A stretch of 64,000 bases of DNA from an uncultured Gammaproteobacteria bacterium (GCA_964499955.1 CAZCMI010000001.1:39485-103484), one strand, 5' to 3'. Positions 17,324-63,900 are shown, numbered from the stretch's first letter. The notes: generated from the sequence alone by a model not told the origin. Numbers and translations: made by a program.

Positions 17324-17477
17324 TAAAAACAGGTGAATTCCTTGACGTTTGGCGCAAAGGGTGCTAGAAAACCGGGTCCTCTCCGAATGGTTCGGGGTGG
17401 GCGTGAACGACCATTTCTTTCACAATCGGCGAGAAATATCGCCATGCGTTGCCCGGCGCACCGGGCGGAGGTTCATC

Positions 17478-20666
<3,189 letters not shown>

Positions 20667-27778: not shown

Positions 27779-27944
27779 AACGGGTCAGCCCCCAAGCCGG
27801 CGGCGTCGTGCCACCCGCACGTTCCTCCCGCTTGGAGGCGGATCCGTCTCCAAGGCTCGTCGATACGAAACGCCTAAAAGGTCGAGGCCGAAAGGCTGCG
27901 TTTCGCCCTTAATACCAAAAAAGGTTCTGACGTTTTTCAATGCT

Positions 27945-43518: not shown

Positions 43519-44525
43519 TTGTCGCCAGCGTCGCCGTTCCCGCGCGGAACGCGGAGAAAACCATGGGAGCGTGCCTGCGCGCGCTTGCGCGGCAGACCTT
43601 CCCGCCGGACCAGTTTGAGGTCGTCGTGTGCGACGACGGTTCGACGGACGCAACTCGCGCCATCGTCGAGCGCTTCGCCCAAACCGCCCCCTTCCGCCTG
43701 CGCTTATTGCGGCGCCGTCCCGATGACGTGCACGGCCCCGGCTTTGCGCGCGGGGACGCCTGGCGTGCGTGCGAGGGAGACGTCCTGCTGGCGACGGACG
43801 CGGATTGCGTGCCGGATCCCGCCTGGATCGCCGAAGCCGTCGCGGCCGTGCGGGAACGCGGGGAAGCCGTCGTCTTCGGCGCGACGGTCGCGGAAGACCT
43901 GTTGTTATTTCCACATCGGGCCGCTGCGATCGGCTGGGGCGTCACCGGCAATTGCGCCGCGCGGCGGGACGTTTTCCAGACCCATGCGTTCGACCCCTCG
44001 TTCGTCGGGCTGTACGGCGAAGACGCGGATTATTTCCTGCGGATCGAACGGGCCGGCGTCCGCATCGCCCGCGTTCCCGGCATGCGGGTTCTGCATCCGG
44101 TAAAGGTGTATGGCGCGAAGACGCTCGCGTACCGCGCTTTCAGCAGGAAGAACGAAGCGTTATTGCATAAAAAGCACGGCGGGCGCGCGGCGCCGTTCTT
44201 CCATCCGTTTTTTCGCGCCTTCGGTCGAACGGGCGTTTCCCCGATGTTCCTCGCCGTCGTCGGGTTTTTTCTCGCGGCGGTCTTGCTCATCGCCACCGTG
44301 CCTCTCCGCCTCGTTCTTGTCCTGTTTGCCGCAAGCGCCGTGATGGGCGGCATCTGGTTCCTGTGTTGGGGCTACAAGACGTGTATCATATTCCTGCCGC
44401 CGGACGCGCCGCCCGTGTCGGTGCGGGAACGGGTACGGACGCTCGCTTCGCTTGTCTTGTACATGCCGTGCCTCCTCGCCGCCCGCGTATACGGGTCGGT
44501 CCGATATCATACGTGGTTCGTTTGA
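43515..44525 (+). CDS. GT2 glycosyltransferase with C-terminal TM segments
   Basis: VAVPARNAEKT...VCDDGSTD...ATDADCVPDP. The C-terminus is hydrophobic. Confidence 0.7.
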   Translation: MIVASVAVPARNAEKTMGACLRALARQTFPPDQFEVVVCDDGSTDATRAIVERFAQTAPFRLRLLRRRPDDVHGPGFARGDAWRACEGDVLLATDADCVPDPAWIAEAVAAVRERGEAVVFGATVAEDLLLFPHRAAAIGWGVTGNCAARRDVFQTHAFDPSFVGLYGEDADYFLRIERAGVRIARVPGMRVLHPVKVYGAKTLAYRAFSRKNEALLHKKHGGRAAPFFHPFFRAFGRTGVSPMFLAVVGFFLAAVLLIATVPLRLVLVLFAASAVMGGIWFLCWGYKTCIIFLPPDAPPVSVRERVRTLASLVLYMPCLLAARVYGSVRYHTWFV

Positions 44526-44538
44526 CCTTCTCCCGTCT

Positions 44539-48876: not shown

Positions 48877-48914
48877 AAAACCCCCGTCATATGGCGGGGG
48901 TTTTGTGTTACCAT
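48877..48914 (+). promoter_or_regulatory. terminator hairpin fused to TTTTGTG + -10-like TTACCAT, 9 nt before the subtilisin ATG
   Basis: aaaacccccgTCATATGGcgggggTTTTGTGTTACCATgggcgcgttATG. Confidence 0.45.
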
Positions 48915-48923
48915 GGGCGCGTT

Positions 48924-50492: not shown

Positions 50493-50560
50493 CGTCGTTC
50501 TGCCGCCCCGTCGCGCGAACCCGCGAAATCCCGTACACTTGCCGCATACCATATTCCCTT

Positions 50561-51598
50561 ATGCCCGACGTCGTCTTTGAGAAGAAAAACGTCCTGGTGA
50601 CCGGCGGGGCCGGATTCATCGGCTCGCATTTGTGCGAGCATTTGCTGCGTGACGGCCACCGCGTGGCCTGCGTGGATAATTTTTCCACGGGGCACGTCCG
50701 CAACATCGAAAACCTGCTGTCGTATCCGGACTTCCAGTTCATCCGCGCGGACATCAACCAGCCGCTCGACTTGGAAACATTCACGGAGCTGGCCGCGTTC
50801 AAGCTGCCGTTCCAGGGCTTCCAGCAGGTCTACCACCTGGCCTGCCCCATGTCGATCGCCAACTTCGACCAGTTCAAGATGCAAACCTTGCTGGCGAATT
50901 CCGTCGGCACGTACCACGTTCTTGAGATCGCCCGCAAATACCGTGCGCGCGTGTTGCTCGCGTCCAGTTCCGTTGTGTACGGCCCGCGCAACGACGCCCA
51001 GCCGTTCATGGAGGAAACAGACGCCGGCCGGGCGCTCAACCACCTCTCGCCGCGCGGCTGCTACGACGAAGGCAAGCGGTTCGTGGAAACCATGGGCGCC
51101 ACGTACCGCCAGGTGCACGGCTTGGACGTCCGCACGGCGCGCATCTTCCGCACCTACGGCCCGCGCATGCCGCTGTTCGACGGCCAGCTCATTCCCGACT
51201 TCGTGCTGAACGCCTTGGATGGCAAGGACCTGGTCGTGTATGCGCAGGGCAAGCTGCGGACCTCCATGATGTACGTCGCCGACGCCGTGGACGGGCTGTT
51301 GCGGCACATGAACGCCGCCGAGGCGCCGGACGTGGTGAATTTCGGCAGCGACGTGGAAATGGATATCAACGACGTGGCCAAGCGCGTGGTGGAAATGACG
51401 GGATCCTCGTCGAAGATCACCACGAGGGAGGACCTGCTGTTCCTGATGGAATTGCCCCTGCCGCGCACCGGCCGCGCACGCGAACTGGGCTGGCTGCCGC
51501 TGGTGCGTTTGGAAGACGGCCTGCGCCGCACCATTGACTACATCCGGGCGAATAAGCTGTTATTGACGGCAGGAGAGGGGGAAGACCGGGCTGCGTAA
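50561..51598 (+). CDS. UDP-glucuronate decarboxylase (UDP-xylose synthase)-like SDR
   Basis: VLVTGGAGFIGSHLCEHLLRDGHRVACVDNFSTGHVRNI matches a UXS/ArnA-type extended SDR N-terminus. Confidence 0.75.
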   Translation: MPDVVFEKKNVLVTGGAGFIGSHLCEHLLRDGHRVACVDNFSTGHVRNIENLLSYPDFQFIRADINQPLDLETFTELAAFKLPFQGFQQVYHLACPMSIANFDQFKMQTLLANSVGTYHVLEIARKYRARVLLASSSVVYGPRNDAQPFMEETDAGRALNHLSPRGCYDEGKRFVETMGATYRQVHGLDVRTARIFRTYGPRMPLFDGQLIPDFVLNALDGKDLVVYAQGKLRTSMMYVADAVDGLLRHMNAAEAPDVVNFGSDVEMDINDVAKRVVEMTGSSSKITTREDLLFLMELPLPRTGRARELGWLPLVRLEDGLRRTIDYIRANKLLLTAGEGEDRAA

Positions 51599-51627
51599 CG
51601 CCGACCGGGCCGATTTGAGACAACCGT

Positions 51628-52296
51628 ATGCGTATTATCGCCATCATTCCCGCGTACAACGAGGCCTCCCACGTGGGGGTCGTGGTTGCGCGTACGCGCC
51701 CGTTCGCGGACGTAGTGTTGGTGGTGGATGATGGCTCGACGGACGGCACGGCCGAAGCGGCCCGCGCGGCGGGTGCCCGGGTGGTGCGCCATGCCTTGAA
51801 CCGCGGGCTCGGTGCGGCGCTCGGCACGGGGTTTGAAGCCGCCCGGCGGTTGGGCGCCGATGTCGCCGTCACCCTGGATGCCGACGGCCAGCACGACCCG
51901 TCGGAAATTCCCAAGTTCACGGAGGCTGTGCGCGGCGGCGCCGATTTCGTCATCGGCTCGCGGCTCATCGCTCCCGAGGGCGGCATGCCCTGGTACCGCG
52001 TGGCCGCCAACCTGTTGGGCAACCTCGCCACCTTCGTGCTGTTCGGCGCCTGGGTGACGGACAGCCAGTCCGGCTTCCGCGCGCTGAACCGCCGCGCCTT
52101 GGCAACCATGCAGGTGCGTTCCAACCGCATGGAAGTGTCCTCCGAGTTGGTCGCCGAGGCCCGGCGCAACGACCTGTGCCTGGCGGAAGTGCCCATCCGC
52201 GCGATCTACACCGAATACTCCCTGTCGAAGGGCCAGAGTTTCTTCGTCGGGATCAAGACCTTGTTCAAGCTCGTCTTCCGCCGCCTCACGGGGTAG
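51628..52296 (+). CDS. GT2 polyprenyl-phosphate glycosyltransferase (Dpm1/GtrB-like), soluble type
   Basis: IIAIIPAYNEASHV...VVDDGSTDGT...DADGQHDP. Confidence 0.8.
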   Translation: MRIIAIIPAYNEASHVGVVVARTRPFADVVLVVDDGSTDGTAEAARAAGARVVRHALNRGLGAALGTGFEAARRLGADVAVTLDADGQHDPSEIPKFTEAVRGGADFVIGSRLIAPEGGMPWYRVAANLLGNLATFVLFGAWVTDSQSGFRALNRRALATMQVRSNRMEVSSELVAEARRNDLCLAEVPIRAIYTEYSLSKGQSFFVGIKTLFKLVFRRLTG

Positions 52297-52310
52297 CGCG
52301 CCGCACCGGT

Positions 52311-52661
52311 ATGTCCATCCTTCCCGTGCAATTCCTCATCGTCGCCTTCGCCGTCTTCGCCGCCGCGCGCGCCGTGGCGCAGTTCCGTGCGGGCCGCCTG
52401 CGCCTGGCGGGGCTTGGCGCGTGGCTGGTGTTATGGTGCGCGCTCGTCGTCATCGGCCTGCTCCCGCATACGGCCACGGCCGTGGCGCAGTTCCTCGGCG
52501 TGGGCCGCGGCGTGGACGTGGTGATCTACGCCTCGCTTGGCGCGCTGTTCTATTTGGTCTTCCGCCTGTTCGTCCGACTAGAAGAAACGGACCGGGAAAT
52601 CACCCGCTTGGTGCGGATGCAGGCGTTGGAGGGGTTGAACGAGAAAGAAACGGACCTATGA
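52311..52661 (+). CDS. small membrane protein (DUF2304/GtrA-like partner of GT2)
   Basis: ~116 aa with 3 TM segments, placed after a Dpm1-like GT2. Confidence 0.45.
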   Translation: MSILPVQFLIVAFAVFAAARAVAQFRAGRLRLAGLGAWLVLWCALVVIGLLPHTATAVAQFLGVGRGVDVVIYASLGALFYLVFRLFVRLEETDREITRLVRMQALEGLNEKETDL

Positions 52662-53809
52662 AGATCGCCCACGTCGTGTCCACCTACCCGCCGTATCGGG
52701 GCGGGATGGGCCACATCGCCTCGGAATACACGGAGCGTTTGCGGGCGCGCGGGCACAACGTCCACGTGTTCACGCCGCGCTTCGGCCGGCCGGTGGAAGG
52801 TGATCCGGATTACGTCCACCGCGTGCCGTCGCCGCTGCACGTGGGGAACGCGGGCGTTACGCCGTCGCTGTTCCGCCGCCTTTCGGGTTTCGACGTCGTG
52901 CACTTGCACTATCCGTTTTTCGGTGGCGCGGAGCCGACCATCGTCCGCAAGGCGCTACGGTCCGACCAGGCGCTGGTGGTCACCTACCACATGGACACCC
53001 AGGCCGACGGGCTCAAGGGCATGGTCTTCGAAATGCACCGCCGGGCGCTGCTCCCGTGGCTGATGTCGCGCGCGGACCGCATCCTGGTGAGTTCCATGGA
53101 TTATTACGCCTCGTCGTCCTTGGCGAAGTTGGGGCTGCAGGAGCGCGTGCGGGAATTGCCGTTCGGCGTGGATTTGGAACGGTTTGCGCCGGGTGCCTCG
53201 CCGGAGCTGCGCGCGCGGTTGGGCGTGGGGGAAGAGGAGGCTTGCGTGCTGTTCGTGGGCGGTATGGACGCTCCGCATGCGTTCAAGGGCGTGCCGGTGT
53301 TGCTGGCGGCCATGGAGAAGTTGAAGGACGAGCCGGTGCGCGCCGTGCTGGTGGGCGACGGCGATTTGCGGCCGGAGTTCGAACGGCAGGCCGCGCATTT
53401 CGGCGTGGCCGAACGGGTGCGGTTCGCCGGGAACGTCCCGCCCGAAGAGTTGCCCGCCTATTACCGCGCCGCGGACATCCACACGCTGCCGTCCACCACG
53501 CGCGGGGAGGCCTTCGGGCTGGTGGCGTTGGAGGCGGCTGCGAGCGGCATCCCGAGCGTGGTGTCGGATTTGCCGGGGGTGCGCACGGTGGTGTTAGATG
53601 GCGAAACCGGCCTGCGCGTGCTCCCCGGGGACGCCGAGGCCCTGGCCGCGGCCCTGCGCCGCCTGGCCGTGGAACCCGGCCCCCGCCGCGCCTTGGGCGC
53701 CGCTGCCCGCGCCCGCGCGGAGGCGGCCTATGCCTGGGACCCGCTGATGGACCGGCTGGAGCAGGTGTATGCGGAAGTGAAGCAGGTACCCGAAGAGGCA
53801 AACCCATGA
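52658..53809 (+). CDS. GT4 glycosyltransferase
   Basis: MKIAHVVSTYPPYRGGMGHIA...EAAASGIPSVVSDLPG. ATGA overlap. Confidence 0.8.
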   Translation: MKIAHVVSTYPPYRGGMGHIASEYTERLRARGHNVHVFTPRFGRPVEGDPDYVHRVPSPLHVGNAGVTPSLFRRLSGFDVVHLHYPFFGGAEPTIVRKALRSDQALVVTYHMDTQADGLKGMVFEMHRRALLPWLMSRADRILVSSMDYYASSSLAKLGLQERVRELPFGVDLERFAPGASPELRARLGVGEEEACVLFVGGMDAPHAFKGVPVLLAAMEKLKDEPVRAVLVGDGDLRPEFERQAAHFGVAERVRFAGNVPPEELPAYYRAADIHTLPSTTRGEAFGLVALEAAASGIPSVVSDLPGVRTVVLDGETGLRVLPGDAEALAAALRRLAVEPGPRRALGAAARARAEAAYAWDPLMDRLEQVYAEVKQVPEEANP

Positions 53810-55032
53810 ACATCGGCATCGTTTCCAATCTCTATCCACCCCATGCCCGCGGCGGCGCCGAGCACATCGCTTGGCGCACGGCCCATGCGCTGTACGCCCG
53901 CGGCCACAAGGTCTTCGTCCTGTCCACCATGCCCTATGGCGGGCCGTCTTCGGCATTCCACCTCGAAGCCGAGCCGCAGCTCGAAACGGTCTACCGTTTC
54001 TTCCCGCCCAACTTCTACCACCCGCTTTCCAGCGCGTCCTATCCCATGCCCGTGCGTGCGCTCTGGCACCTCGTGGACATGTGGGGTCCGGTTCCGGGGC
54101 GCATGTTCGCCCGTGCCGCCCGCGAGGAGCGCCCGGACGTGGTCGTTACGCACAACCTGAAGGGCATCGGCCTGCAGGTGGTGCCGGCCATCCGTCGGCT
54201 GGGCATCCCGCACGCGCACGTCCTGCACGACGTCCAGTTGTCCGTGCCGAGCGGCCTGCTCATGTATGGCAAGGAGGCGGCGTTCGTGAACAGCGGCTTC
54301 CCGCGCCGCTGGTACGAAGGGGCCGTCCGCCGGATCGTCGGCTCGCCGGACACGGTGATTTCGCCCTCCCGGTTCCTGGCCGACTTCTACCGACAGCGCG
54401 GCTTTTTCCCGGACAGCCGGGTGGAAATCCTGCCGAATCCCGCGCCGGAAACCCGCGTGCCCGCCTTGGGTCCCCGCCCGCCGGGGCCGGTGCGCCTGCT
54501 CTTCGCCGGGCAGCTGGAAGAACACAAGGGCGTCCGCTTCCTGCGCAAGGCCCTCGATGCCCTCGACGTCCCGTTCTCCCTGCACATCGCCGGGGACGGT
54601 TCGCTGGCCAAGGAAGTGGCCGCCTGGGCGGAGCGCGACGAGCGCGTGGTCTACCACGGCTTCGTTTCGCTGGACAACCTGATGCGCCTCTTGGGCATCT
54701 GCGACGCCGTGCTGGTGCCGTCGCTGTGCTACGAGAACTCCCCGACGGTGATCTACGAAAGCTTACTGGCCGGCGTGCCGGTCATTGCCTCGCACATCGG
54801 CGGGGTCGGCGAACTGGTGCGCGACGGGGAGAACGGCTTCCTGGTCACCCCCGGCCGCCAGGACGAACTGCTCGCCGCCGTGCGCCGCATGTCCGCCGAG
54901 GCCGAGCAATTCCGCGCGCGGGCGGAGGGCATCCGCGCCAGCGTGGAGCCGTACCGCATGGCGAAGTACATGGAACGGCTGGAACGGCTGTTGGAAGAGA
55001 CGATCGCGCAGCACGGAAAAACCGCCTGTTGA
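53806..55032 (+). CDS. GT4 glycosyltransferase
   Basis: MNIGIVSNLYPPHARGGAEHIA...ESLLAGVPVIASHIGGVGE. ATGA overlap. Confidence 0.8.
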   Translation: MNIGIVSNLYPPHARGGAEHIAWRTAHALYARGHKVFVLSTMPYGGPSSAFHLEAEPQLETVYRFFPPNFYHPLSSASYPMPVRALWHLVDMWGPVPGRMFARAAREERPDVVVTHNLKGIGLQVVPAIRRLGIPHAHVLHDVQLSVPSGLLMYGKEAAFVNSGFPRRWYEGAVRRIVGSPDTVISPSRFLADFYRQRGFFPDSRVEILPNPAPETRVPALGPRPPGPVRLLFAGQLEEHKGVRFLRKALDALDVPFSLHIAGDGSLAKEVAAWAERDERVVYHGFVSLDNLMRLLGICDAVLVPSLCYENSPTVIYESLLAGVPVIASHIGGVGELVRDGENGFLVTPGRQDELLAAVRRMSAEAEQFRARAEGIRASVEPYRMAKYMERLERLLEETIAQHGKTAC

Positions 55033-55072
55033 GGGCGGTTTTTCTTTCGCGGAAGGCGAGGGTGCGCCGCGG

Positions 55073-57202
55073 CTAGAACGCGTAGCGGAACACGTGCGCA
55101 CGGCCGTCCCGGACGGCGAACCATTCGTCCGCCGTTTCCTTCGCCCGCGCCACGATGGCGGGGGCGTCCCACCAGTAGTCGTCCACCACGTAGTAGACCT
55201 CGCGGATGCGGCCGTATTCGCACCAGTCGCCGCAGCGTTCCTCCGCCCAGGCGGCGGCGGCCCATGCCGTTTCCCGCGACGGGTCGGCGTTCATGTCCAG
55301 GAACAGCGCGTACATGTGCCCGCCGGTGGGAATGGGATAGAAGAACTGGTCGCCGTAGTAGCGGAAGCCCACGCCGGTGAGGGCGGCGGCGGACACGCTT
55401 TGGTGGGCCAGCGCCACGTACGGCCCCTCCGCCCGCTGTTCGATGAGCCGCACCGCTTCGACATTGGCCGCGGAGACGTTGTATCCGTGGCCTTTTTGAT
55501 AGGCGTCGTCGCGCGGATAGGCGGCGTACCACAGGGCGGGCAGGGCGGCGGCCGCGACGGCCAGCGTCAGGATGCGCACGGCGGCGGGGGCGTGGGTGAG
55601 CCGCGCGGAGAACCGCACCAGCCCGGCGACGGCCAAGGGAGCCAGGCCGAACAGGGCGAGCGGCAGCAGGCGATCCGCGTAGTTCAGGCGTTCGTAATCA
55701 ATGAGGAAGGAAAAGTCCGTTACGGCGGCGAGCAGCACGCCGTTCACGAGCATCATGCCCGCGAAGGCCAGGGACGCCAGGCGCAGGGGGCGTCCCGACG
55801 TGCGCCACCCGTAGGCGGAGAGGGCCAGCCACGCGGCGCCGGCGAGCCACCCCGCCCACACGGCGAAATCCAGGAACGGGCGGAAGGGGAAGCCTACGAC
55901 GGGCGGCCGGGGTACCAGAGCGGCCAAACGGGCGAGCGCCCCGTCCGGTTGGAAGGCCGGTTGGCCGGTTTGCCAGGCAAGCACGGCGAAGGCCAGCGGC
56001 AACAACACGGCCCCCACGCCCACGATAACGCCGCGCGGCACGGCGGCCCACGCGGCTTTCAACCGAGGGACGCGCCGCGGATCGGCGGCGAGATAGGCGG
56101 CGAACAACAGGGCGGGCAGCCCGGCCACCGGGTGGATGGCGAGCGCCGCCAAGGCCGGGAGGAACAGGGCGAGCGGCCCCGGACGTTCGTCACGGGCCAG
56201 GGCGGGGACGGCCGCCGGCACCAACAGCAAAATCCACAGGTTCGCCAGGCCTTGGGGGGTGGTAATGGCGAATCCCGCTAGTGGCAGCAGGAACAGGCCA
56301 AACAGGGCGAAGGCCGCGTGCCGCCGGTCCTTGGCGACGTGCAAAGCAGCGCCCATCCAGGCGAAGGGAAGCAGCAGGGCCGCGAGTAGCGGCAGCAGGA
56401 ACCGGTCCGCGGCTTCCACGGGCAGGGCGAAGGCGTGGTGCAGGAACGCCACCAGCACGTATTGACCCACGTAATACGGCTGTTTCGGTTCGATGGCGCC
56501 GTGTTCCACCACCAGCCGTTCCGCCGCTTGATGGATGAACGGGTCGAAGCCCGTCCCGAGCGGAAAGACCGTCCACGGCACGCTCACGAAGGTGAACACA
56601 GCCGCCGACGCTAGAACAACGGACAGCAGGCGTTCGCGCCCACGGCTCCACAATGCGGCGAGGAACGCCCCGGCGGCGGCCATCGCGGCGAAGGCGGCGG
56701 GAGCAACTGCGCGCCAGGGGGAGGCCACCGCTTCCACCGTGGCCGAGTCGACCAGCACGCGGAAGGCGATGGCGAGTGCCAGCAACGCACCCGAGGCGCA
56801 GGCCAGCACGGCGGGCGGAATCCGGTGCGGGGCGTCCGACCAGGCGTCGTGCGCCAGCAGGGACGGCCGGGACCGCTTCATGGCCAAAAACGCGACGGGC
56901 GGAATGAGCAACGCCAGCGTCCACGCCAGCCAGTCGGGAAAGGAATGGAGATAATACGCCGCTGCCCCCACCAGCATAAGTGCGGAAAGCAGCATCCACG
57001 CACCCTGCCACCAGCGCAGCACGGGATGTTCGTCGGGGGCCACGGCGCGGCCGACCTGCGCCCCAAAGACGAACACGAACGCGGCGGCCAGAATCAGCCC
57101 GAATCCGGGCGACCGCCACGCGGCGGCATTCACGAGAAAACCGGCTAGAAGGAGCAGGCCCGGCATGCTAGAGTACAGGCCGAAAGAGGAAGGCATAGGC
57201 AA
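55073..57202 (-). CDS. large polytopic membrane protein (~14 TM) with C-terminal soluble domain; putative GT-C glycosyltransferase or polymerase
   Basis: 709 aa and very hydrophobic. The C-terminal ~130 aa is hydrophilic and Trp/Tyr-rich. Confidence 0.4.
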   Translation of the reverse strand: MPMPSSFGLYSSMPGLLLLAGFLVNAAAWRSPGFGLILAAAFVFVFGAQVGRAVAPDEHPVLRWWQGAWMLLSALMLVGAAAYYLHSFPDWLAWTLALLIPPVAFLAMKRSRPSLLAHDAWSDAPHRIPPAVLACASGALLALAIAFRVLVDSATVEAVASPWRAVAPAAFAAMAAAGAFLAALWSRGRERLLSVVLASAAVFTFVSVPWTVFPLGTGFDPFIHQAAERLVVEHGAIEPKQPYYVGQYVLVAFLHHAFALPVEAADRFLLPLLAALLLPFAWMGAALHVAKDRRHAAFALFGLFLLPLAGFAITTPQGLANLWILLLVPAAVPALARDERPGPLALFLPALAALAIHPVAGLPALLFAAYLAADPRRVPRLKAAWAAVPRGVIVGVGAVLLPLAFAVLAWQTGQPAFQPDGALARLAALVPRPPVVGFPFRPFLDFAVWAGWLAGAAWLALSAYGWRTSGRPLRLASLAFAGMMLVNGVLLAAVTDFSFLIDYERLNYADRLLPLALFGLAPLAVAGLVRFSARLTHAPAAVRILTLAVAAAALPALWYAAYPRDDAYQKGHGYNVSAANVEAVRLIEQRAEGPYVALAHQSVSAAALTGVGFRYYGDQFFYPIPTGGHMYALFLDMNADPSRETAWAAAAWAEERCGDWCEYGRIREVYYVVDDYWWDAPAIVARAKETADEWFAVRDGRAHVFRYAF

Positions 57203-57241
57203 AAATCATTTGCCCTAAGTATACAGGAAAGACGTCGTGGT

Positions 57242-57823
57242 ATGGCCTTCGCACGCGACCCGCACAAACTTTTCCCGCATGACAAGCTGTTCGCCGCCAC
57301 CATCCTGCGGCTGGTGCCGGATTTCGTTTCGCCGAACATGGTCACCATCCTGCGGTTCGTACTGACGCCGTTCGTGCTGTTCTTGATGATCATGGAAGAT
57401 TGGAACGTCGCCGTGCCGTTGTTCCTGCTCGTCGCGTTCACGGACGCCTTGGACGGTTCGCTGGCCCGCGTGCGCCGCAAGGTTACCGCCTGGGGCACGT
57501 TTTACGATCCCGTCGCGGACAAACTGCTGATCGGTTCGGTGGTGCTGATCATCGTGGCGAAGTACGTCAATCCGTGGTTCGCCCTGCTGATCTTGCTGAT
57601 GGAAGTGCTGATCATCGCGGGCGGGCTGTGGCGCAAGCGCCAGGGCGTGGTGATGTCGGCCAACGTCTTCGGCAAAACCAAGATGTTCCTGCAGGTGGCG
57701 GGCGTGAGTTTCCTGTTGTTCGCCGTGTGGTCCGGCGTGAGTTTGTTCGTGCCGTTGTCCGTGGGGACGCTGTCCGTGGCCATCGTCTTCGCTGTCATCA
57801 GTTTGTTCACCTACGGGTTATGA
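57242..57823 (+). CDS. CDP-alcohol phosphatidyltransferase family protein (PgsA-like)
   Basis: DALDGSLAR...G..YDPVADK fits the D-G-x2-A-R...G-x3-D-x3-D motif. 5-6 TM segments. Confidence 0.7.
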   Translation: MAFARDPHKLFPHDKLFAATILRLVPDFVSPNMVTILRFVLTPFVLFLMIMEDWNVAVPLFLLVAFTDALDGSLARVRRKVTAWGTFYDPVADKLLIGSVVLIIVAKYVNPWFALLILLMEVLIIAGGLWRKRQGVVMSANVFGKTKMFLQVAGVSFLLFAVWSGVSLFVPLSVGTLSVAIVFAVISLFTYGL

Positions 57824-59589
57824 GGCGTCCCGGCACCGTCGCGTTGTGGCTGGCCGCCGCCGCGTTGTGTTGCGCGTCGTTCGTTTTGTGGCGGCACGGG
57901 TTTACGTTCCTGTCGCCGGACGAATCGGCCAACGCGTTCTTTGCGCGCACGTTTGCGGAGACGGGGCGGCTGTTCGTGGAAGAACCGTTGAACGCCGAGC
58001 TGGGGGACGCGCTGTATCCGCGCAGCGTCATTTCCCTGGGCGCGCGGGTGGTGCCGGTGGGATTTTTCGGGGTGCCGTTGGTGTTCGGTGCCGTGGCGGC
58101 CGCGTTCGGCCCCTGGGCGATGGCAGCCGTGACGCCGCTGTTGGCCGCGTTGACCGTGCTGGCGTGGGCGGCTGTCTGCGGGCGGTTGTTCGGCGAGCGG
58201 ATCGGGTGGCTTTCCGGCATGCTCTTCGCCGTGCATCCGGCGCTGTGGTACTACGCCTCGCGTTCGTTCATGCCGAATGTGCCGTTCCTGGCGTTTTTGA
58301 CGTTCGCGGCGTTTTTCCTGGTGGCGCGGCCGTTTGCGGACGGTCGGGCGGGGAGGTGGATGGAGAAGGTCGTTGGGGCGCGGAAGGAACTTCTGCCTTT
58401 GTTGGATGCCGCGTGCGCCGGGCTGTGCTTTGGCGCGGCGTTGTTGATTCGCCCGGCGGAAGGACTGTGGGCTGGCGCGGCGATGGCGGCCGTGCTGTGG
58501 TGGACGCGCGCCAAGGGCCGGGCGATGTGGCGCATGCCAGCCGCGTTCGCCGTGGCGTGTTTGGTGGCGTTGGCGCCTTGGCCGTTGTTGAACCGGGACT
58601 TGTACGGCGGCGCGCTCAACACGGGGTATACGCCGACCGCCACGGTATCCTCTGATGACAATGGGAGGGCGGGCTACGCGGCTCCCGACGACAGAGATCC
58701 GACGACCATGAGGGAGGCCGACGTGAAGGAGGCCGAACCGGGTTGGCAGGAGATGTCGGGACGGGAGGCGACTGAAGCGGCGTCGTTGCGCGACCGGATC
58801 GAAACCGCGCTGGAACCTGTGCTGCCGTTCGGCGTCCATCCGCGCCTGGCGTGGGGGGAATTCCAGATGTACGGCTGGGGCATGTTCTGGTGGATGTTCT
58901 TGCTCGCCGCCGTTGGCGTCCCCGCGTTCTTCCGTTCGCAACAAGGGCGGGCGGGCGCGCGTTGGCGGTATGCCGCGCTGGCCGCGGGCGTGTCGGGCTG
59001 GTTGTGGATCATGTACGGCAGCTGGAGTTTCCACGACAATCCCGACCCGACCCAAATCACCATCGGCAATTCGCACGTGCGGTATTGGCTGCCGATCTTC
59101 CTGCTGATGACGCCGCTTGCTGCCGCCGGCGTGGATTGGGCGCTCGGGCATCTGCGTTCCGCGCGGGCACGTGCCGTTCTGCTCGGCGGGTTGTTTGCCG
59201 TCCTCCTGGCGTTGTGCGTGCGCACGGCGTGGTTCATGCCACAGGACGGCCTGCGCGACGCCTTGGCCGCCCTGGAACAATCCGCCATCGCGCGGGAACG
59301 CGTGCTGGCCCGCACGGAGCCGGACGCCGTGGTCATCGTGGACCGGGCGGACAAGATCCTCTTCCCGCACCGTCGCGTGCTCTATCCCCTGCGGGAGGAG
59401 CGCACCTACGCGCTCATGCCCCTCATCGCCGCGCGCGCGCCGTTGTATTATTACGGCATCACCTTCCCGCCGCGAGACGTCGCCTGGCTGAACGCGGAAA
59501 AACTGCCGCCGCTCGGCCTGCAGATCGAAGCGGTGGAGACCGTCGGGGAGGAGACGCTGTATCGGATTTGGGAGGCGGCGAGTGAGTAG
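57820..59589 (+). CDS. GT-C glycosyltransferase, PMT/ArnT-like (GT39/GT83 family)
   Basis: A DE motif in the first extracytoplasmic loop (LSPDESANAFF), ~11 TM segments and a C-terminal soluble domain. ATGA overlap with the PgsA-like gene. Confidence 0.55.
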   Translation: MRRPGTVALWLAAAALCCASFVLWRHGFTFLSPDESANAFFARTFAETGRLFVEEPLNAELGDALYPRSVISLGARVVPVGFFGVPLVFGAVAAAFGPWAMAAVTPLLAALTVLAWAAVCGRLFGERIGWLSGMLFAVHPALWYYASRSFMPNVPFLAFLTFAAFFLVARPFADGRAGRWMEKVVGARKELLPLLDAACAGLCFGAALLIRPAEGLWAGAAMAAVLWWTRAKGRAMWRMPAAFAVACLVALAPWPLLNRDLYGGALNTGYTPTATVSSDDNGRAGYAAPDDRDPTTMREADVKEAEPGWQEMSGREATEAASLRDRIETALEPVLPFGVHPRLAWGEFQMYGWGMFWWMFLLAAVGVPAFFRSQQGRAGARWRYAALAAGVSGWLWIMYGSWSFHDNPDPTQITIGNSHVRYWLPIFLLMTPLAAAGVDWALGHLRSARARAVLLGGLFAVLLALCVRTAWFMPQDGLRDALAALEQSAIARERVLARTEPDAVVIVDRADKILFPHRRVLYPLREERTYALMPLIAARAPLYYYGITFPPRDVAWLNAEKLPPLGLQIEAVETVGEETLYRIWEAASE

Positions 59590-59628
59590 GTATGTCGATG
59601 CCATGGTGCCGAATCGGCGCACGACCAT

Positions 59629-60435
59629 ATGAAAAAACATCTCCCCATTATCACCGCTGCCGTTCTCGCCGCCGCCCCCGCGGTGTTGTTCGGCTGGTTG
59701 GCGTGGCAGGAATTAGTGCCGGGCGGCACGTTTCGTGCGGCCTGGGAGCCGGGGGAGCGGTCGTCGTTCATCGACCCGATCCGGCCGGACCAGCGCGTGC
59801 TGCCGCCGTCGCGCGCGGGCGGGGAGCGCCAGCAGGCCGTGGTAGGCGATCCCGTCTACACCTTCCTGCATCCGCACCGGCATTTCGACGCCGTGTCCTT
59901 GGAAATCCGCTTCCGCAACGAAGGCGTGCCGATCATTGAAGCGGGCGGGTTGGTGCAGGCCGGGCCGGACGAAATCTACGACCTGCATCCGGTGGACAAC
60001 CTGCTCATCGACGGGTCGGCGTGGCCGCGCTTGGAAGAAGACGGCTATGCGTTGTTGCAACGTCAGCCGACATATGCGAGCGTCGACGCATTTTTCCAAC
60101 AGCCGCCCCCGCCGGAGCGCATGGCGACGTATCGCTGCGACCGCTGCACGTGGGAAGGGTCTCCGCGCCTGCTGCCGGAGCTTGATCTCGATGCGGCGGG
60201 CGTGGACTTCGTCATTGCCCGGTATGAAACGCCGCGCCAGGAAGGAAGTTGGAAGGTGGCGACGGTCGATTTGGACCCGTCCAAGATGCTGGCCCAGCGT
60301 GGAGCGTGGAAGGTCGTTCTGTCCGCACCCGGTGCGGGGAAGGACGGCCGCGCCGTGGTGGTGAACCGTCTGGAAGCGACCTTCCGCCGTGACACGCTGC
60401 GGGAAGAACTGCGCAAACGCATGCCCTGGCTATGA
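59629..60435 (+). CDS. hypothetical secreted/anchored protein
   Basis: N-terminal signal/anchor; no known motif. Confidence 0.35.
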   Translation: MKKHLPIITAAVLAAAPAVLFGWLAWQELVPGGTFRAAWEPGERSSFIDPIRPDQRVLPPSRAGGERQQAVVGDPVYTFLHPHRHFDAVSLEIRFRNEGVPIIEAGGLVQAGPDEIYDLHPVDNLLIDGSAWPRLEEDGYALLQRQPTYASVDAFFQQPPPPERMATYRCDRCTWEGSPRLLPELDLDAAGVDFVIARYETPRQEGSWKVATVDLDPSKMLAQRGAWKVVLSAPGAGKDGRAVVVNRLEATFRRDTLREELRKRMPWL

Positions 60436-60806
60436 AAAACCCCCTGCATCGGAGCAACCCATGGGAGTCGGCGGCGCGCATCGTGCTGGCGGCGTCCTTG
60501 GCGTGGTACGCCGCGTTCTGGCTGGCCGACGCGCTGCGGCCGGGTTTCGTTTCCCGATATCTGTCCGTGCATTGGTTCCTGCTGGTAGCCCTGGCTTGCG
60601 CCGGCTGGCTGCTCGTTCTTGGGGTCACATCCGCCAAATGGACGAAGATACCACGCGCATGGCTGCTGCTTGCGCTGCCCGCCGGACTCTTGGCAGGATG
60701 GGTGGCGTGGCGCGTCGGTGCCGGGGCGGGGGAATACCGCGTCTTGCTGGCCCTGCTCGCCTTCACCGCACCGTTTGCCTTGTCGCATGTTCGCCACTCT
60801 TCCTAA
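60432..60806 (+). CDS. small hypothetical 4-TM membrane protein
   Basis: Hydrophobic, Trp-rich. ATGA overlap. Confidence 0.35.
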   Translation: MKNPLHRSNPWESAARIVLAASLAWYAAFWLADALRPGFVSRYLSVHWFLLVALACAGWLLVLGVTSAKWTKIPRAWLLLALPAGLLAGWVAWRVGAGAGEYRVLLALLAFTAPFALSHVRHSS

Positions 60807-60818
60807 CTTCTCCTGCGT

Positions 60819-61226
60819 ATGCCCGACTGCCTCTTTTGCAACATCGCCGCGCGTGAAATCCCCGGGGAAATCGTGTACGAAGACGACCGTACGCTGGCGT
60901 TCCTCGACATCCGGCCGATCAATCCCGGCCACACGCTGATCATTCCGAAGCGGCACGCGGAAAATTTCGCCGTCACACCGCCGGAAGATATCGCCGCCGT
61001 CATGGCCGCGGCACAGAAATTGGCCCCCGCCATTTTGCGCGCCACGGGCGCCGAGGCGTTCAATTTTTCCACCAACAACGGTCGGGCCGCCGGGCAGGTC
61101 GTCTTCCACACGCATTTCCACCTGATGCCGCGCCTCCCCAAGGACGGCTACGAGCATTGGCGCGGGCCGGACGTCCCGGCGGATTTGGCGTCGGTGGGGG
61201 AGAAGATTCGCGCGGCGTTGGCATAG
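60819..61226 (+). CDS. HIT-family (histidine triad) hydrolase
   Basis: C-terminal HTHFHLMPR histidine triad. N-terminus MPDCLFCNIAAREIP. Confidence 0.85.
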   Translation: MPDCLFCNIAAREIPGEIVYEDDRTLAFLDIRPINPGHTLIIPKRHAENFAVTPPEDIAAVMAAAQKLAPAILRATGAEAFNFSTNNGRAAGQVVFHTHFHLMPRLPKDGYEHWRGPDVPADLASVGEKIRAALA

Positions 61227-61234
61227 GCCGCGCG

Positions 61235-61263
61235 TTGACGGGCCGGGCGGGTTCGCGTAGCAT
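61235..61263 (+). promoter_or_regulatory. sigma70-like promoter TTGACG-N17-TAGCAT
   Basis: cgTTGACGggccgggcgggttcgcgTAGCATgc. The downstream GTG start at 61317 is preceded by an SD-like GGAGAAAGGAAG. Confidence 0.45.
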
Positions 61264-61316
61264 GCGAACTCGCCCTTTTTCTCTCCCACCCCGGCATCGC
61301 CGGAGAAAGGAAGCAC

Positions 61317-61970
61317 GTGTTCGCCACGCAAACGTATCGCCTCGCCGCCATCGCCCGGGATATTTTCCACGGCTTGGCCGCGGGGAAGCCCGAGGTCCGT
61401 CGGCTCATCGCTCCGCTGATGGAAGAGCGCATCCGGGAATTTGTCCCGGACGACGCCGATCCGGATCCGCGGGTCGTCCTCGTCTCCTTCGTGGGTGCGG
61501 ACGGCCGGGCAGACGCGCATGAGCCGCGTGGACCCGTCTCGTTGCATGTGCACACGCGGTACAACGCGACGGTGGTGCGCGTGCCGTTCCTGGTCGTGGA
61601 TCTCCGGGTCCGCGCCGGGACGTGGTTCTTCCTCTTCCTTCTGCGGGAGCTGGAGTCCCTGCGTCTCGCACGCATCCGTGCGGCCGAGGCCGACGAGGGC
61701 GCCATGTTCTACGGTCCCCGGGCCGACCAGGACGCGGCAGCGGCGCATCGGTTCGTCGGCACCTTGCTGGAGCGCGTCGCAGGGCCGTTCTTCAACCCCC
61801 GCCTGCGCAAGGTGCGTCGGGCCGCCCCAGCGGATCGCCGTTCGGTGGCAGACACGCTCGCGGAAGATTTCTGCGAGGAAATACGCTACGTGTGGCAAAG
61901 CTGGCCCGGCATGGACGCCGCCTGCCGCGCGTTCATCGCCGACGCCCTCTTCCACGGGGCCGACGTCTGA
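61317..61970 (+). CDS. hypothetical protein
   Basis: 217 aa, GTG start with an SD; no recognised motif. Confidence 0.35.
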   Translation: MFATQTYRLAAIARDIFHGLAAGKPEVRRLIAPLMEERIREFVPDDADPDPRVVLVSFVGADGRADAHEPRGPVSLHVHTRYNATVVRVPFLVVDLRVRAGTWFFLFLLRELESLRLARIRAAEADEGAMFYGPRADQDAAAAHRFVGTLLERVAGPFFNPRLRKVRRAAPADRRSVADTLAEDFCEEIRYVWQSWPGMDAACRAFIADALFHGADV

Positions 61971-62010
61971 TCTCCTGCGGGGGGTCTTTTTTTTATCCGC
62001 CGCGGGCGTC

Positions 62011-62039
62011 TTGCCTCGCGCCAAAAAGGACGGTAACGT
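62011..62039 (+). promoter_or_regulatory. sigma70-like promoter TTGCCT-N17-TAACGT; the -10 ends 9 nt before the rfbB ATG (leaderless-type)
   Basis: cTTGCCTcgcgccaaaaaggacggTAACGTgggcgcattATG. It is preceded by GC-rich sequence and a T8 run that is a likely terminator. Confidence 0.4.
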
Positions 62040-62048
62040 GGGCGCATT

Positions 62049-63053
62049 ATGAAGATTCTCGTTACCGGCGGCTGCGGCTTCATCGGCTCGAATTTCATCC
62101 GGTCCCTGCTGGCCCGGCGCCCCGACGTTTCCCTCGTGAACCTGGACGCGCTGACGTATGCCGGCAACCCGGCCAACCTGCGCTCCGTTGAAAACGATCC
62201 GCGCTACGCCTTCGTCCGCGGCGACATTACGGACGCGGCGTTGTTGGATCGCTTGTTCACCGAGCATGCGTTCGACGCCGTCGTGAACTACGCGGCCGAA
62301 ACCCACGTGGACCGTTCCATTTTGGACCCGGACGTGTTTTTGCGAACCAACGTCATGGGCACGCACCGCCTGCTGGAAGCCGCGAAGAAATTCGGCGTGA
62401 AGAAATTCGTGCAGATTTCCACGGACGAAGTGTACGGGGAAGTGCTCGAGGGCGAGGCGAAGGAAGACCATCCGTTTGCCCCGCGCAGTCCGTATTCCGC
62501 TTCCAAGGCCGCCGCGGACCACCTCTGCCGCGCCTACGCCGAAACCTACGGCCTCCCCGTGGTCGTCACCCACGGCGCCAACATGTACGGTCCGTACCAC
62601 TATCCCGAGAAGGTCATCCCGCTGTTCATCACCAACCTGATGGAAGGAAAGAAGGTTCCGTTGTACGGCGAGGGCGCGCAAATCCGCGAGTGGATGCACA
62701 TCGAGGACCACGCGCGCGCCATCGAACTGATTTTGGAGAAGGGGAACGGCGGCGACGTGTACAATATCGGCACGGGGGAGCGTTTCAGCAACCTGGAGCT
62801 GACGCGCAAGATCCTGGCGGCGATGGAAAAGGGGGAGGAGCACATCGAACGCGTGAAGGACCGCGCCGGGCACGACGCCCGCTACGCCTTGGACGCCCGC
62901 CGCCTGCGCGCCCTGGGCTGGGCGCCGTCCATCTCCTTCAACGACGGCTTGCGGCAGACCATCGCCTGGTACCGGGAAAACGAAGCGTGGTGGAAGCCCA
63001 TCAAAAGCGGGGAATATATCGCCTATTACAAAACGCAGTACCACGACCGGTAA
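62049..63053 (+). CDS. rfbB: dTDP-glucose 4,6-dehydratase
   Basis: MKILVTGGCGFIGSNFIR...NLDALTYAGN...AAETHVDRS...YSASKAA, a full RmlB signature. Confidence 0.9.
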   Translation: MKILVTGGCGFIGSNFIRSLLARRPDVSLVNLDALTYAGNPANLRSVENDPRYAFVRGDITDAALLDRLFTEHAFDAVVNYAAETHVDRSILDPDVFLRTNVMGTHRLLEAAKKFGVKKFVQISTDEVYGEVLEGEAKEDHPFAPRSPYSASKAAADHLCRAYAETYGLPVVVTHGANMYGPYHYPEKVIPLFITNLMEGKKVPLYGEGAQIREWMHIEDHARAIELILEKGNGGDVYNIGTGERFSNLELTRKILAAMEKGEEHIERVKDRAGHDARYALDARRLRALGWAPSISFNDGLRQTIAWYRENEAWWKPIKSGEYIAYYKTQYHDR

Positions 63054-63054
63054 T

Positions 63055-63900
63055 ATGAAGATCCTCATTTTCGGCAAAGGCATGGTGGGAAGCCGCTGCG
63101 CGGAGGCGTGGCCCGACGCCGTGTTGTCCGACGTCCGCGTCGTCACGAAAGAGGACGCCTTGGCGGAAATCCGCCGCCACAACCCCGACGCCGTGTTGAA
63201 CGCCGCGGGCGTGACCGGCAAGCCGAACGTGGACTGGTGCGACCAGCCGGGCAACCAGCTGCCGACCATCCTCGGCAATACGCTCATGCCCATCGTGCTG
63301 GCCCAGGCCTGCCAGGAAGCGGGCGTGTACCTGCTGCACGTCGGTTCCGGCTGCATCTTCTACGGCGACTCCCCGCACGCGGACAAGAAATGGCGCGAGG
63401 ACGACTTCGGCAACCCGCTGCCCGCCTATTCCCGCAGCAAGTGGGCGGCCGACCTGGTGCTTTCCACCCTGCCGAACGTCGGGATCGCGCGCATCCGCAT
63501 GCCGCTGGACCACCAGCCCGGTTCGCGCAACCTCATCGACAAACTGGCAAAATACCCGAAGGTCATCGACGTGGAAAACAGCGTCACGGTGGTGGACGAC
63601 ATGGTGGACGCCTTCCGGCAGTTGCTCGAAAAGAAGGGGGAGGGGATTTTCCACGTGACTAATCCCGGCACGATCAAGCACCGCGAACTGCTGGGCTTGT
63701 ACGAAGAACTGGTCGATCCGTCCCACACGAACGAATGGATCACGGCCGAGGAATTGGTAACCACCGGGCTGGCCACGAAACTCCGCAGCAACAACTTCAT
63801 GCATTCCAGCCGGTTGGAGGCGCTTGGGATCCACATGCGTCCGGCGAAGGAGGCGTTGCGCGACACGATGGAAAAGTATGCCCGCTTGACCCGCCCGTAG
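63055..63900 (+). CDS. RmlD-like sugar-nucleotide reductase (dTDP-4-dehydrorhamnose reductase family)
   Basis: MKILIFGKGMVGS...NAAGVTGKPNVDWCD...YSRSKWAAD matches the RmlD substrate-binding family. It lies immediately after rfbB. Confidence 0.6.
   Translation: MKILIFGKGMVGSRCAEAWPDAVLSDVRVVTKEDALAEIRRHNPDAVLNAAGVTGKPNVDWCDQPGNQLPTILGNTLMPIVLAQACQEAGVYLLHVGSGCIFYGDSPHADKKWREDDFGNPLPAYSRSKWAADLVLSTLPNVGIARIRMPLDHQPGSRNLIDKLAKYPKVIDVENSVTVVDDMVDAFRQLLEKKGEGIFHVTNPGTIKHRELLGLYEELVDPSHTNEWITAEELVTTGLATKLRSNNFMHSSRLEALGIHMRPAKEALRDTMEKYARLTRP

Follow-up and report, generated by a model that had tools for sequence, protein, structure and literature searches.

A PgsA-like phosphatidyltransferase gene coupled to an orphan GT-C glycosyltransferase gene in a conserved cell-envelope cluster of Candidatus Uhrbacteria

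The 64,000-nucleotide stretch GCA_964499955.1 CAZCMI010000001.1:39485-103484 (hereafter the window, from whose first nucleotide all coordinates are counted) is titled as DNA of an uncultured Gammaproteobacteria bacterium and carries on its plus strand two overlapping genes: gene A (57242-57823), encoding a PgsA-like CDP-alcohol phosphatidyltransferase of 193 amino acids, and gene B (57820-59589), encoding a membrane glycosyltransferase of 589 amino acids with a predicted GT-C fold and a C-terminal alpha/beta domain at approximately residues 500-589. The A-B pair is best explained as the centre of a cell-envelope operon that extends throughout the lineage Candidatus Uhrbacteria (Patescibacteria), to which the genome of the window itself belongs. 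With regard to the product of this operon, we favour, at a probability of roughly 40%, a phospholipid-anchored glycolipid or lipoglycan similar to the phosphatidylinositol mannosides and lipomannan (PIM/LM) of mycobacteria or to glucosaminyl-phosphatidylglycerol (GlcN-PG). A scan of one genome per GTDB species with a profile of A gave 80 loci, whose six-frame open reading frames (ORFs) were searched with hidden Markov models (HMMs), and a metagenome scan for B gave 80 loci, 70 of them with upstream sequence sufficient to judge. Flanks in related genomes were viewed over +/-10 kb each and the source genome over the 64-kb window, in which the Pfam scan took in approximately 45 ORFs.

The assignment of A to the CDP-alcohol phosphatidyltransferases, proposed in the initial annotation from a catalytic motif, was confirmed: A matches PF01066 (CDP-OH_P_transf) at E 2.6e-30 and 106.3 bits, against a gathering cut-off of 22 bits, and residues 68-93, DALDGSLARVRRKVTAWGTFYDPVAD, hold the complete D-x2-DG-x2-AR-x8-G-x3-D-x3-D signature (D68-A-L-D71-G72-S-L-A75-R76-(8)-G85-(3)-D89-(3)-D93), whose residues show no variation in 30 homologues and are kept in approximately 148 of 150 representatives. 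Its closeness to PgsA was judged by the scores of curated HMMs and by the ranking of an A-family profile against structures in the PDB. The top curated model is TIGR00560 (pgsA), which covers residues 31-191 with 90.3 bits and stays under the equivalog cut-off of 109.1 bits; ClsA (58 bits), archaetidylinositol-phosphate synthase (49 bits) and phosphatidylinositol-phosphate (PIP) synthase (31 bits) rank lower. Among solved structures, Staphylococcus aureus PgsA (SaPgsA, 7drj) matches the profile over its full length at E 2.2e-17, whereas the E values of phosphatidylinositol (PI) and PIP synthases, AF2299, CEPT1 and DIPPS are all >= 5e-4, and the PI/PIP synthases in the PDB cover residues 28-101 only, that is, the shared CDP motif. 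Because the match to SaPgsA is full-length and the others are partial, the acceptor-binding half of A appears to be PgsA-like and not of the inositol or choline type.

With SaPgsA (7DRJ) and Escherichia coli PgsA, A shares the length class, a full-length alignment and all eight residues of the catalytic motif, but its identity is 29% and the TIGR00560 cut-off is missed by every one of the 40 family members scored, namely 30 close homologues (best E 4.3e-27) and 10 distant representatives down to 32% identity (64-98 bits). The ligands of the glycerol-3-phosphate (G3P) 3'-phosphate in SaPgsA are K83, R110, R118, K137 and Y181, and the R110A mutant is less active than the wild type (PMC8640168). 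In a MAFFT alignment of A with the S. aureus and E. coli enzymes, K83, K137 and Y181 are retained as K94, K147 and Y191, and the equivalent of K135 is also conserved, whereas R110, which belongs to the canonical A-R-E motif, is M120 in A and L, I, V, F or M in 150 of 150 representatives; R118 is replaced by G128, with an arginine, R131, three residues or one helical turn later, and T138 is replaced by Met. The A subfamily also has approximately 30 extra N-terminal residues that include a near-universal Asp (D14). Judged from sequence, these features would fit both a clade of divergent, genuine phosphatidylglycerol phosphate (PGP) synthases that the curated model misses and a clade with a modified acceptor. 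The outcome that had been named in advance as speaking against the initial proposal, a firm clustering of A within housekeeping PgsA, was thus found in part only: PgsA is the nearest family, but the score (90.3 versus 109.1 bits) and the subfamily-wide replacement of one G3P-binding arginine set A apart from it. With the A-family HMM, no second CDP-alcohol phosphatidyltransferase was found in the 64-kb window or in approximately 88 related loci.

At E<=1e-30 the A subfamily numbers 55 representative clusters, at E<=1e-10 it numbers 1,715, and a threshold of E<=1e-3 brings in 16,302 hits. Five of its representatives (P0330, P0344, P0347, P0354 and P0356; 340-364 amino acids) have two separate stretches matching A, and by reading, P0330 and P0344 are tandem double CDP-alcohol phosphatidyltransferases; the canonical PgsA motifs A-R-E and L-R are present in the second copy of P0344 and not in the first. 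In P0306 (403 amino acids), a CDP-alcohol phosphatidyltransferase of the A subfamily is joined to an N-terminal domain of approximately 200 residues, which by eye looks like a permuted papain/NlpC-P60-type domain.

The protein encoded by B begins MRRPGTVALW..., and a longer ORF starting with TTG at 57400 was rejected as its start, being merely an out-of-frame read-through of A. The DE motif in loop 1 that had been pointed out from the sequence was verified as S32-P33-D34-E35, which comes immediately after the first hydrophobic helix and does not vary among 32 homologues. B itself has no match in Pfam even at E<=5, in NCBIfam or among PDB sequences, and the B-family profile finds no PDB sequence at E<=1. 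Among the 32 homologues (29-52% identical), 20 match PF13231 (PMT_2; best E 3.6e-10) and four match STT3. An AlphaFold2 model built on the homologue alignment (pLDDT 89.3, pTM 0.90) was compared with the PDB by Foldseek; ArnT (5f15) came first (E 8.6e-7, TM ~0.5, identity 14%), followed by STT3 of several oligosaccharyltransferase complexes, ALG9, AglB, AftA and Pmt4 (probability 1.00 for ArnT and for each of these), so that the top matches are all GT-C enzymes. The model thus predicts a GT-C fold, and the most suitable classification of B is as an orphan GT-C family close to the PMT_2/ArnT class. The PMT/ArnT-like label that B had first been given is upheld through its homologues (PMT_2) and its predicted fold (ArnT), but not from its own sequence.

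A and B are joined by the ATGA overlap described at the outset, which was read from the plus strand at 57820-57823: the TGA stop of A (57821-57823) overlaps the in-frame ATG of B at 57820, in the sequence GGGTTATGAGGCG. Within the core lineage, conservation of the A-B coupling is very strong. A homologue of B lies downstream of A on the same strand in 77 of the 80 GTDB species loci, the best-placed start of B is at most 31 nt from the stop of A in 75, and the two genes overlap in 54, by 11 nt in 42 loci and by 4 nt in 12. In the 11-nt overlap, the ATG of B is embedded in the codons for the conserved C-terminal T-Y-G of A, and the 4-nt overlap reads ATGA or GTGA. From the side of B, A is immediately upstream in 61 of the 70 assessable metagenome loci. 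This tight coupling spans a deep divergence, the B proteins being 29-52% identical, and the arrangement of A and B with M709, a divergently transcribed membrane protein gene considered below, persists at 45% identity of A.

The exceptions are few and varied. A and B are separated by 3.9 kb in one GTDB species locus (L037), and in another A is followed by an unrelated ORF and then the end of the contig. In the metagenome set, a gene of approximately 450 codons stands between A and B in L131, and a similar gene of approximately 420-450 codons lies directly upstream of B in L109 and L158, where no A is seen in the 4 kb of flanking sequence; other genes precede B in two further loci. Elsewhere, in L083, with a distant B homologue (30% identity), the slot of A is taken by a membrane-anchored, methyltransferase-like gene of 180 codons that overlaps the GT-C start. 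The gene of 420-450 codons upstream of B occurs in one or two copies and has a conserved C-terminal stretch, ...SPYF.ESG(L/M)TPEDW...ETGKPLD....

A search of representative proteins with A also recovered P0345, an in-frame A-B fusion of 766 amino acids, encoded on the minus strand of a 13.3-kb contig with the usual synteny (L086:5914-8214). Its CDP-alcohol phosphatidyltransferase domain (approximately residues 22-192) is followed by a full B homologue (SPDEAANFFF..., HPRSM, YGSW..., RYWLP, DRSDKFLFP, ETLYRI), and one frame continues across the junction, where the final helix of A passes into B at its Met. A frameshift artefact was considered and rejected because both halves are in one frame with no garbled stretch. 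CDP-alcohol phosphatidyltransferases with six transmembrane segments end in the cytoplasm, where GT-C enzymes begin, and such a fusion should therefore be topologically compatible.

The pair lies within a cluster of approximately 15 kb (48891-63900) whose synteny is kept in the 80 loci, with A proteins that share 48-72% identity with that of the window; the order is S8 peptidase, SDR, GT2, DUF2304, GT4a, GT4b, M709, A, B, P268, P124, HIT and RmlB/D. The setting in glycan biosynthesis that had been surmised is borne out by the cluster, including its GT2 and DUF2304 genes, the expected supplier of a GT-C donor. The accompanying term "island" is not, since this is core synteny in essentially all Uhrbacteria sampled, and a horizontally acquired glycan island was accordingly discarded on the synteny seen in 80 of 80 Uhrbacteria loci. 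The GT2 gene (51628-52296, plus strand; PF00535 E 3.4e-23) encodes a PpgS/GacI-like polyprenyl-phosphate sugar synthase, whose best NCBIfam model is NF058614 (PpgS, polyprenyl-phospho-GalNAc synthase) with 152 bits over the full length against a cut-off of 370, and the gene after it (52311-52661, plus strand; PF10066 E 4.2e-23) encodes a small DUF2304 membrane protein of the GacJ/Rv3632 type, a GT2 partner. GacJ stimulates GacI and Rv3632 stimulates PpgS; the pairs GacI/GacJ and PpgS/Rv3632 make a polyprenyl-monophosphate sugar, which a GT-C enzyme (GacL or Rv3779) transfers outside the membrane (10.1101/180810). By analogy, the GT2 enzyme presumably supplies the lipid-linked donor for the GT-C enzymes of the cluster, and B presumably uses a polyprenyl-phosphate sugar, the GT2 and DUF2304 genes belonging to the same conserved cluster.

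Two cytoplasmic glycosyltransferases of family GT4, recognized with Pfam and NCBIfam, follow on the plus strand: GT4a (52658-53809), of the GT-B type, and GT4b (53806-55032). GT4a scores 133 bits with MshA, 111 bits with BshA and 94 bits with GlcN_PG_synth, all under the respective cut-offs (480 for GlcN_PG_synth), and is thus closest to enzymes whose acceptors are polyols, phosphates or phosphatidylglycerol (PG), namely MshA, BshA and GlcNAc-PG synthase. M709 (55073-57196, minus strand) encodes a polytopic membrane protein of 697-707 amino acids, depending on the ATG (57166 or 57196), and lies upstream of A in 80 of 80 loci. In its family of 36 homologues, no Pfam match was found except one weak TgpA_N. 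The AlphaFold2 model of M709 (pLDDT 91.0) resembles STT3 and the C-mannosyltransferase DPY19 in Foldseek (E 6.8e-4), and hhalign relates the M709 and B families with a probability of 76% (E 2.2e-5, 341 columns); M709 is probably a second, remote orphan GT-C paralogue, as judged from these models. Its invariant motifs are GFDxFxH and PK..YY. The three components of a GacIJL/PpgS-type set, namely GT2, DUF2304 and GT-C (B and M709), are therefore present in one locus.

From the families and folds of these proteins, the structure of the operon, the conserved coupling and the conserved cluster, we infer a pathway, including the identities of its donors and acceptors, the order of its steps and the eventual arrival of the product of A under B as a substrate. 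A would act on the cytoplasmic face, where a CDP-activated lipid (most likely CDP-diacylglycerol) would donate its phosphatidyl group to a small polyol that is probably phosphorylated; the product of A, PGP/PG or a close analogue, would be an anionic anchor lipid of the inner leaflet. GT4a and GT4b would then add the first sugars to this head group from nucleotide sugars, as PimA and PimB' do on PI and GpgS on PG. The GT2-DUF2304 pair, 5 kb upstream, would make the polyprenyl-phosphate sugar donor, the lipid would be flipped, and B and M709 would use this donor to extend the glycan on the outer face. The initial suggestion that a lipid is synthesized inside the cell and receives its sugars outside thus remains the best single reading, but the inositol and teichoic-like forms that were attached to it are unsupported.

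The phospholipid-anchored pathway has a precedent, since each enzyme class of the cluster is found in mycobacterial PIM/LM synthesis. In mycobacteria, PgsA1 (Rv2612c), Rv2611c and PimA form an operon with Rv2613c and Rv2609c, and the synthesis of PIM, LM and lipoarabinomannan (LAM) further involves Ppm1 and the GT-C enzymes PimE, MptA and MptB. A CDP-alcohol phosphatidyltransferase gene is there in an operon with those for head-group GT4/GT-B enzymes such as PimA, and later steps use a polyprenyl-phosphate sugar made by a GT2 enzyme and outer-face GT-C enzymes, PimE being fed by Ppm1 (PMC3229680). The Uhrbacteria cluster likewise has at least one member of each enzyme class, and its HIT protein is co-transcribed. 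It differs in that A is like PgsA and not like the PIP synthase PgsA1, no inositol genes were seen in the window, no PatA-type acyltransferase is in the cluster, its HIT protein is HinT-like, and the GT-C gene is coupled and in one case fused to the lipid synthase gene, whereas mycobacterial PimE is unlinked. A second precedent is the GlcN-PG pathway, in which the GT4 enzyme GpgS glycosylates PG (PMC12713373). The GpgS/GpgD/GpgF system of Pseudomonas aeruginosa shares with the cluster a GT4 that acts on the PG head group, with similarity of GT4a at the family level; however, GT4a reaches 94 bits against the 480 required, no deacetylase was seen in the Uhrbacteria cluster, and GpgSDF has no GT-C or polyprenyl-phosphate sugar step. 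ArnT, the best structural match of B, transfers a sugar from undecaprenyl phosphate to a lipid phosphate, and the cluster has an ArnC-like GT2 and an SDR enzyme to set beside ArnC and ArnA. The likeness to the Arn system is limited by the TM score of ~0.5 and identity of 14%, by ArnC and ArnA model scores of 45-48 bits, and by the nature of the organism, a monoderm-type bacterium of the candidate phyla radiation (CPR) with no lipid A genes in view.

The parallel to PIM/LM bears directly on the flavour originally favoured, in which A is a PI or PIP synthase and the cluster makes a PI-glycan, that is, an anchor like PIM or glycosylphosphatidylinositol (GPI). The gene set does parallel PIM/LM and GPI synthesis (CDP-alcohol phosphatidyltransferase, two GT4 enzymes, a DPM1/Ppm1-like GT2 with a small partner, GT-C enzymes and HIT, with a Nudix protein in one relative), and among NCBIfam models GT4a scores best with MshA, an inositol-phosphate glycosyltransferase. 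The match of A to SaPgsA (E 2e-17) is full-length, however, and inositol-type enzymes align over the CDP motif alone: NF045883 (30.9 bits, cut-off 170) and NF040950 (49.2 bits, cut-off 180), the PIP and archaetidylinositol-phosphate synthase models, therefore at 31-49 bits against cut-offs of 170-180, are confined to residues ~27-125 in the N-terminal motif half, and structures of PI/PIP synthases reach E >= 5e-4 against 2e-17 for PgsA. The Pfam scan also found no inositol-1-phosphate synthase in the 64 kb, one of the genes that it had been proposed to look for, and we consider an inositol-based anchor the least probable of the readings discussed here.

Several observations weigh against a dedicated partnership of A and B in making a lipid-anchored glycan. 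ATGA overlaps are found at three further junctions of the cluster (DUF2304/GT4a, GT4a/GT4b and P268/P124), and with four such junctions in all, the overlap of A and B loses its value as special evidence. A Mur ligase gene follows A instead of B in L064 and L082, and in the more distant lineages L134, L144, L162 and L168, M709 abuts B with no A between them; because of these A-less lineages with B and M709 and the Mur ligase after A elsewhere, the partnership is not obligatory. The fusion P0345 is supportive but weakly so, since it was recovered once, from a single Logan assembly (SRR27370451). Co-translation is no proof of substrate channelling either, because the active sites of A and B are on opposite sides of the membrane. 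Members of the A subfamily at 32-35% identity stand alone in housekeeping contexts, one of them between ftsH and the gene for ribosomal protein S1 in a genome that also encodes a FadL-type outer-membrane protein, and such contexts fit a general membrane-lipid role. Finally, with E. coli CdsA as query, no CdsA, the source of CDP-diacylglycerol, was found in the window or in approximately 88 related loci.

The main rival reading, only slightly less probable than the favoured one, is that A is a housekeeping PgsA by position. A would then be the PGP synthase for bulk PG, located in a stable envelope super-operon in which A and B share expression and not substrate, and B and M709 would use the polyprenyl-phosphate sugar to modify a wall polysaccharide that contains rhamnose, or a surface protein (of the S-layer or a pilin), in the manner of GacL, Rv3779 and PMT enzymes. 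The pgsA model is indeed the best family match of A, over its full length, and homologues of A are annotated as PgsA by JGI; distant subfamily members occur in housekeeping contexts, A and B occur apart in some lineages, and overlapping genes are common in the cluster. The decoration of a polysaccharide has its precedent in GacI/GacJ/GacL of Streptococcus pyogenes and PpgS/Rv3632/Rv3779 of Mycobacterium tuberculosis, in which GT2 and DUF2304 proteins feed a GT-C enzyme that acts on an extracytoplasmic acceptor, and dTDP-rhamnose genes are in the same cluster here, as RmlB (62049-63053, plus strand; dTDP-glucose 4,6-dehydratase, TIGR01181 460 bits, above the cut-off of 365) and an RmlD-like reductase (63055-63900, plus strand; rmlD 62 bits, under the cut-off), with RmlA and RmlC in the clusters of relatives; this points to a rhamnose glycan. 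The acceptors in those systems are polyrhamnose or arabinogalactan, and no phospholipid synthase takes part in them; B and M709 also differ from their GT-C enzymes as orphans with no sequence-level match to solved structures, and no Wzx-type flippase was recognized in the Uhrbacteria cluster. A housekeeping role is further opposed by the failure of 40 of 40 family members tested to reach the pgsA equivalog cut-off, by the hydrophobic residue at the R110 equivalent in 150 of 150 representatives when R110A lowers the activity of SaPgsA (PMC8640168), and by the tight coupling across deep divergence (B 29-52% identical) together with the in-frame fusion. Moreover, as CPR genomes are reported without complete lipid pathways (PMC7242380), a plain lipid gene so conserved in a glycan operon needs explaining.

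The rhamnose genes also call to mind a teichoic-like chemistry, which the initial annotation had raised as a phospho-alcohol substituent transferred outside. PG made by A would serve as a glycerol-phosphate donor for decorating the glycan on the outer face, as in the LtaS and GacH reactions. A is PgsA-like, and the Gram-positive-like combination of rhamnose genes, GT2-DUF2304 and GT-C resembles the streptococcal clusters for rhamnose cell-wall polysaccharides (Rha-CWPS), which carry a glycerol-phosphate (GroP) decoration. However, neither a TagF-type enzyme nor an LtaS/GacH-type sulfatase-fold transferase was found in the cluster or the window by Pfam, including P268, P124, M709 and the unannotated ORFs, and the predicted folds of B and M709 are those of glycosyltransferases and not of phosphotransferases, which makes this reading quite improbable.

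The lack of CdsA near any locus would be less of a puzzle if A worked with reverse polarity, moving a phospho-alcohol from a soluble CDP-alcohol (CDP-glycerol, CDP-ribitol, CDP-inositol or the like) to scavenged diacylglycerol or lysolipid, or to a polyprenyl-linked intermediate, in the manner of choline and ethanolamine phosphotransferases (CPT/EPT) and DIPPS; an organism that scavenges its lipids could then do without CdsA. CPR genomes without complete lipid pathways (PMC7242380) are in keeping with this idea, and two features, the missing equivalent of R110 and the extra conserved N-terminal segment with D14, separate the A subfamily from PgsA. Yet over its acceptor-side half, A aligns with PgsA and not with CEPT1, DIPPS or AF2299, no cytidylyltransferase gene was detected by Pfam in the operon or the window, and the HIT protein is HinT-like and not a nucleotidyltransferase; we give reverse polarity a very slender chance. 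Genes of the CDP-glycerol type had been suggested as a further check on the head-group chemistry, and the 64-kb window has no inositol-1-phosphate synthase, CdsA or cytidylyltransferase. Lacking their diagnostic genes or sequence signatures, the teichoic-like, reverse-polarity and inositol alternatives are minor.

Within the phospholipid-anchored reading, a stronger form can be proposed, in which A on the inner face and the orphan GT-C on the outer face constitute a physically coupled machine, in one lineage a single polypeptide, that builds an undescribed lipoglycan, a functional analogue of PIM/LM or GPI, with a head-group alcohol that is not G3P. The subfamily-wide loss of the R110 equivalent suggests such an alcohol; taken as a whole, this form is unlikely, albeit less so than the three minor alternatives.

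The CPR/Patescibacteria represent a large share of bacterial diversity, and to our knowledge almost nothing is known of their envelope chemistry. The literature on phospholipid genes of Patescibacteria and envelope glycans of Uhrbacteria gave no account of the A-B pair, only general statements on lipid pathways in CPR bacteria, which are reported to be without complete lipid synthesis pathways (PMC7242380; PMC9530719); gene A is not addressed in those reports. The protein folds and the overall logic of the pathway are of known kinds. What appears to be new is that a PgsA-like synthase is coupled to a GT-C enzyme throughout a lineage and now and then fused to it, that two GT-C families are orphans, and that a PgsA-like subfamily of thousands of members, not yet covered by a curated model, lacks a conserved substrate-binding arginine, all of this in organisms believed not to make lipids of their own. 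If the lipid-anchor model is true, the cluster would represent a new class of envelope glycolipid and a new arrangement of lipid synthase and GT-C; if A is instead a housekeeping enzyme, Uhrbacteria would have retained an enzyme dedicated to head groups, and PgsA as defined by TIGR00560 would leave out a large clade. In either case, the five genes at 57242-61226 together with the GT2/DUF2304/GT4 block are a conserved, compact and clonable set that offers an entry point to CPR envelope chemistry.

The taxonomic placement of the window follows its homologues. Named homologues of A and B come from metagenome-assembled genomes (MAGs) of Candidatus Uhrbacteria/Patescibacteria, and in the 80 GTDB species loci the informative titles are nearly all of such MAGs, with a placeholder label on the remainder. 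Many GenBank third-party annotation (TPA) MAG records with the Uhrbacteria cluster are titled "uncultured Gammaproteobacteria bacterium" (for example, L004, L007 and L009), which looks like a placeholder or a wrong taxonomic label. The G+C content of the window, 65.5%, is high for Patescibacteria; judged from the figures in MAG names (loci L003-L082), that of cluster-bearing Uhrbacteria appears to range from approximately 36% to 63%. Nearest relatives are few, at approximately 50% identity for B and 73% for A, and the genome therefore seems to belong to a sparsely sampled, high-GC branch of Uhrbacteria.

Downstream of B, the same operon continues with P268 (59629-60435, plus strand), which has an N-terminal hydrophobic segment and no Pfam match, stands directly after B in 68 of 80 loci and grows to approximately 490 amino acids in relatives. 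Its stop overlaps, as ATGA, the start of P124 (60432-60806, plus strand; 59 of 80 loci), a small, strongly hydrophobic protein whose hydrophobic stretches were seen by eye in the translation and which has only a sub-threshold Pfam match to Ost5 (E 0.064). P124 could be a candidate flippase or accessory subunit; neither Wzx nor GtrA was matched by Pfam in the cluster. The last gene of the unit (60819-61226, plus strand; 51 of 80 loci) encodes a HinT-like protein of the HIT family (PF01230 E 9.8e-29), which scores 103.8 bits with NF045834 (HinT) against a cut-off of 130. It is followed by a terminator-like hairpin at 61245 to 61275 or 61285 on the plus strand, with a 14-bp stem, nine G-C pairs and a T-rich tail, and this hairpin defines the five-gene unit A-B-P268-P124-HIT.

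At the other end, the cluster begins with the S8 peptidase gene (48891-50492, from the gene calls), followed by a gene (50561-51598, plus strand; PF01370 E 1.3e-40) for an NDP-sugar dehydratase, decarboxylase or epimerase of the short-chain dehydrogenase/reductase (SDR) type, labelled "UXS-like" for convenience, which reached no NCBIfam equivalog. Directly upstream of the S8 peptidase gene are plus-strand ORFs of 584 and 860 codons (44452-46206 and 46279-48861), with a strong coding-type bias in G+C at third codon positions (GC3) and no Pfam match. Farther upstream are three very large plus-strand ORFs, which encode a protein of 1105 amino acids with four MopE-type metal-binding repeats (17349-20666), a protein of 1294 amino acids with no Pfam match (27723-31607) and a protein of 2395 amino acids with a Big_5 Ig-like domain (32552-39739). 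Near them lie genes for a Wzy_C O-antigen-ligase-like protein (20770-22314), an extracytoplasmic function (ECF)-type sigma factor (26088-26630) and a DUF5667 protein (26642-27778).

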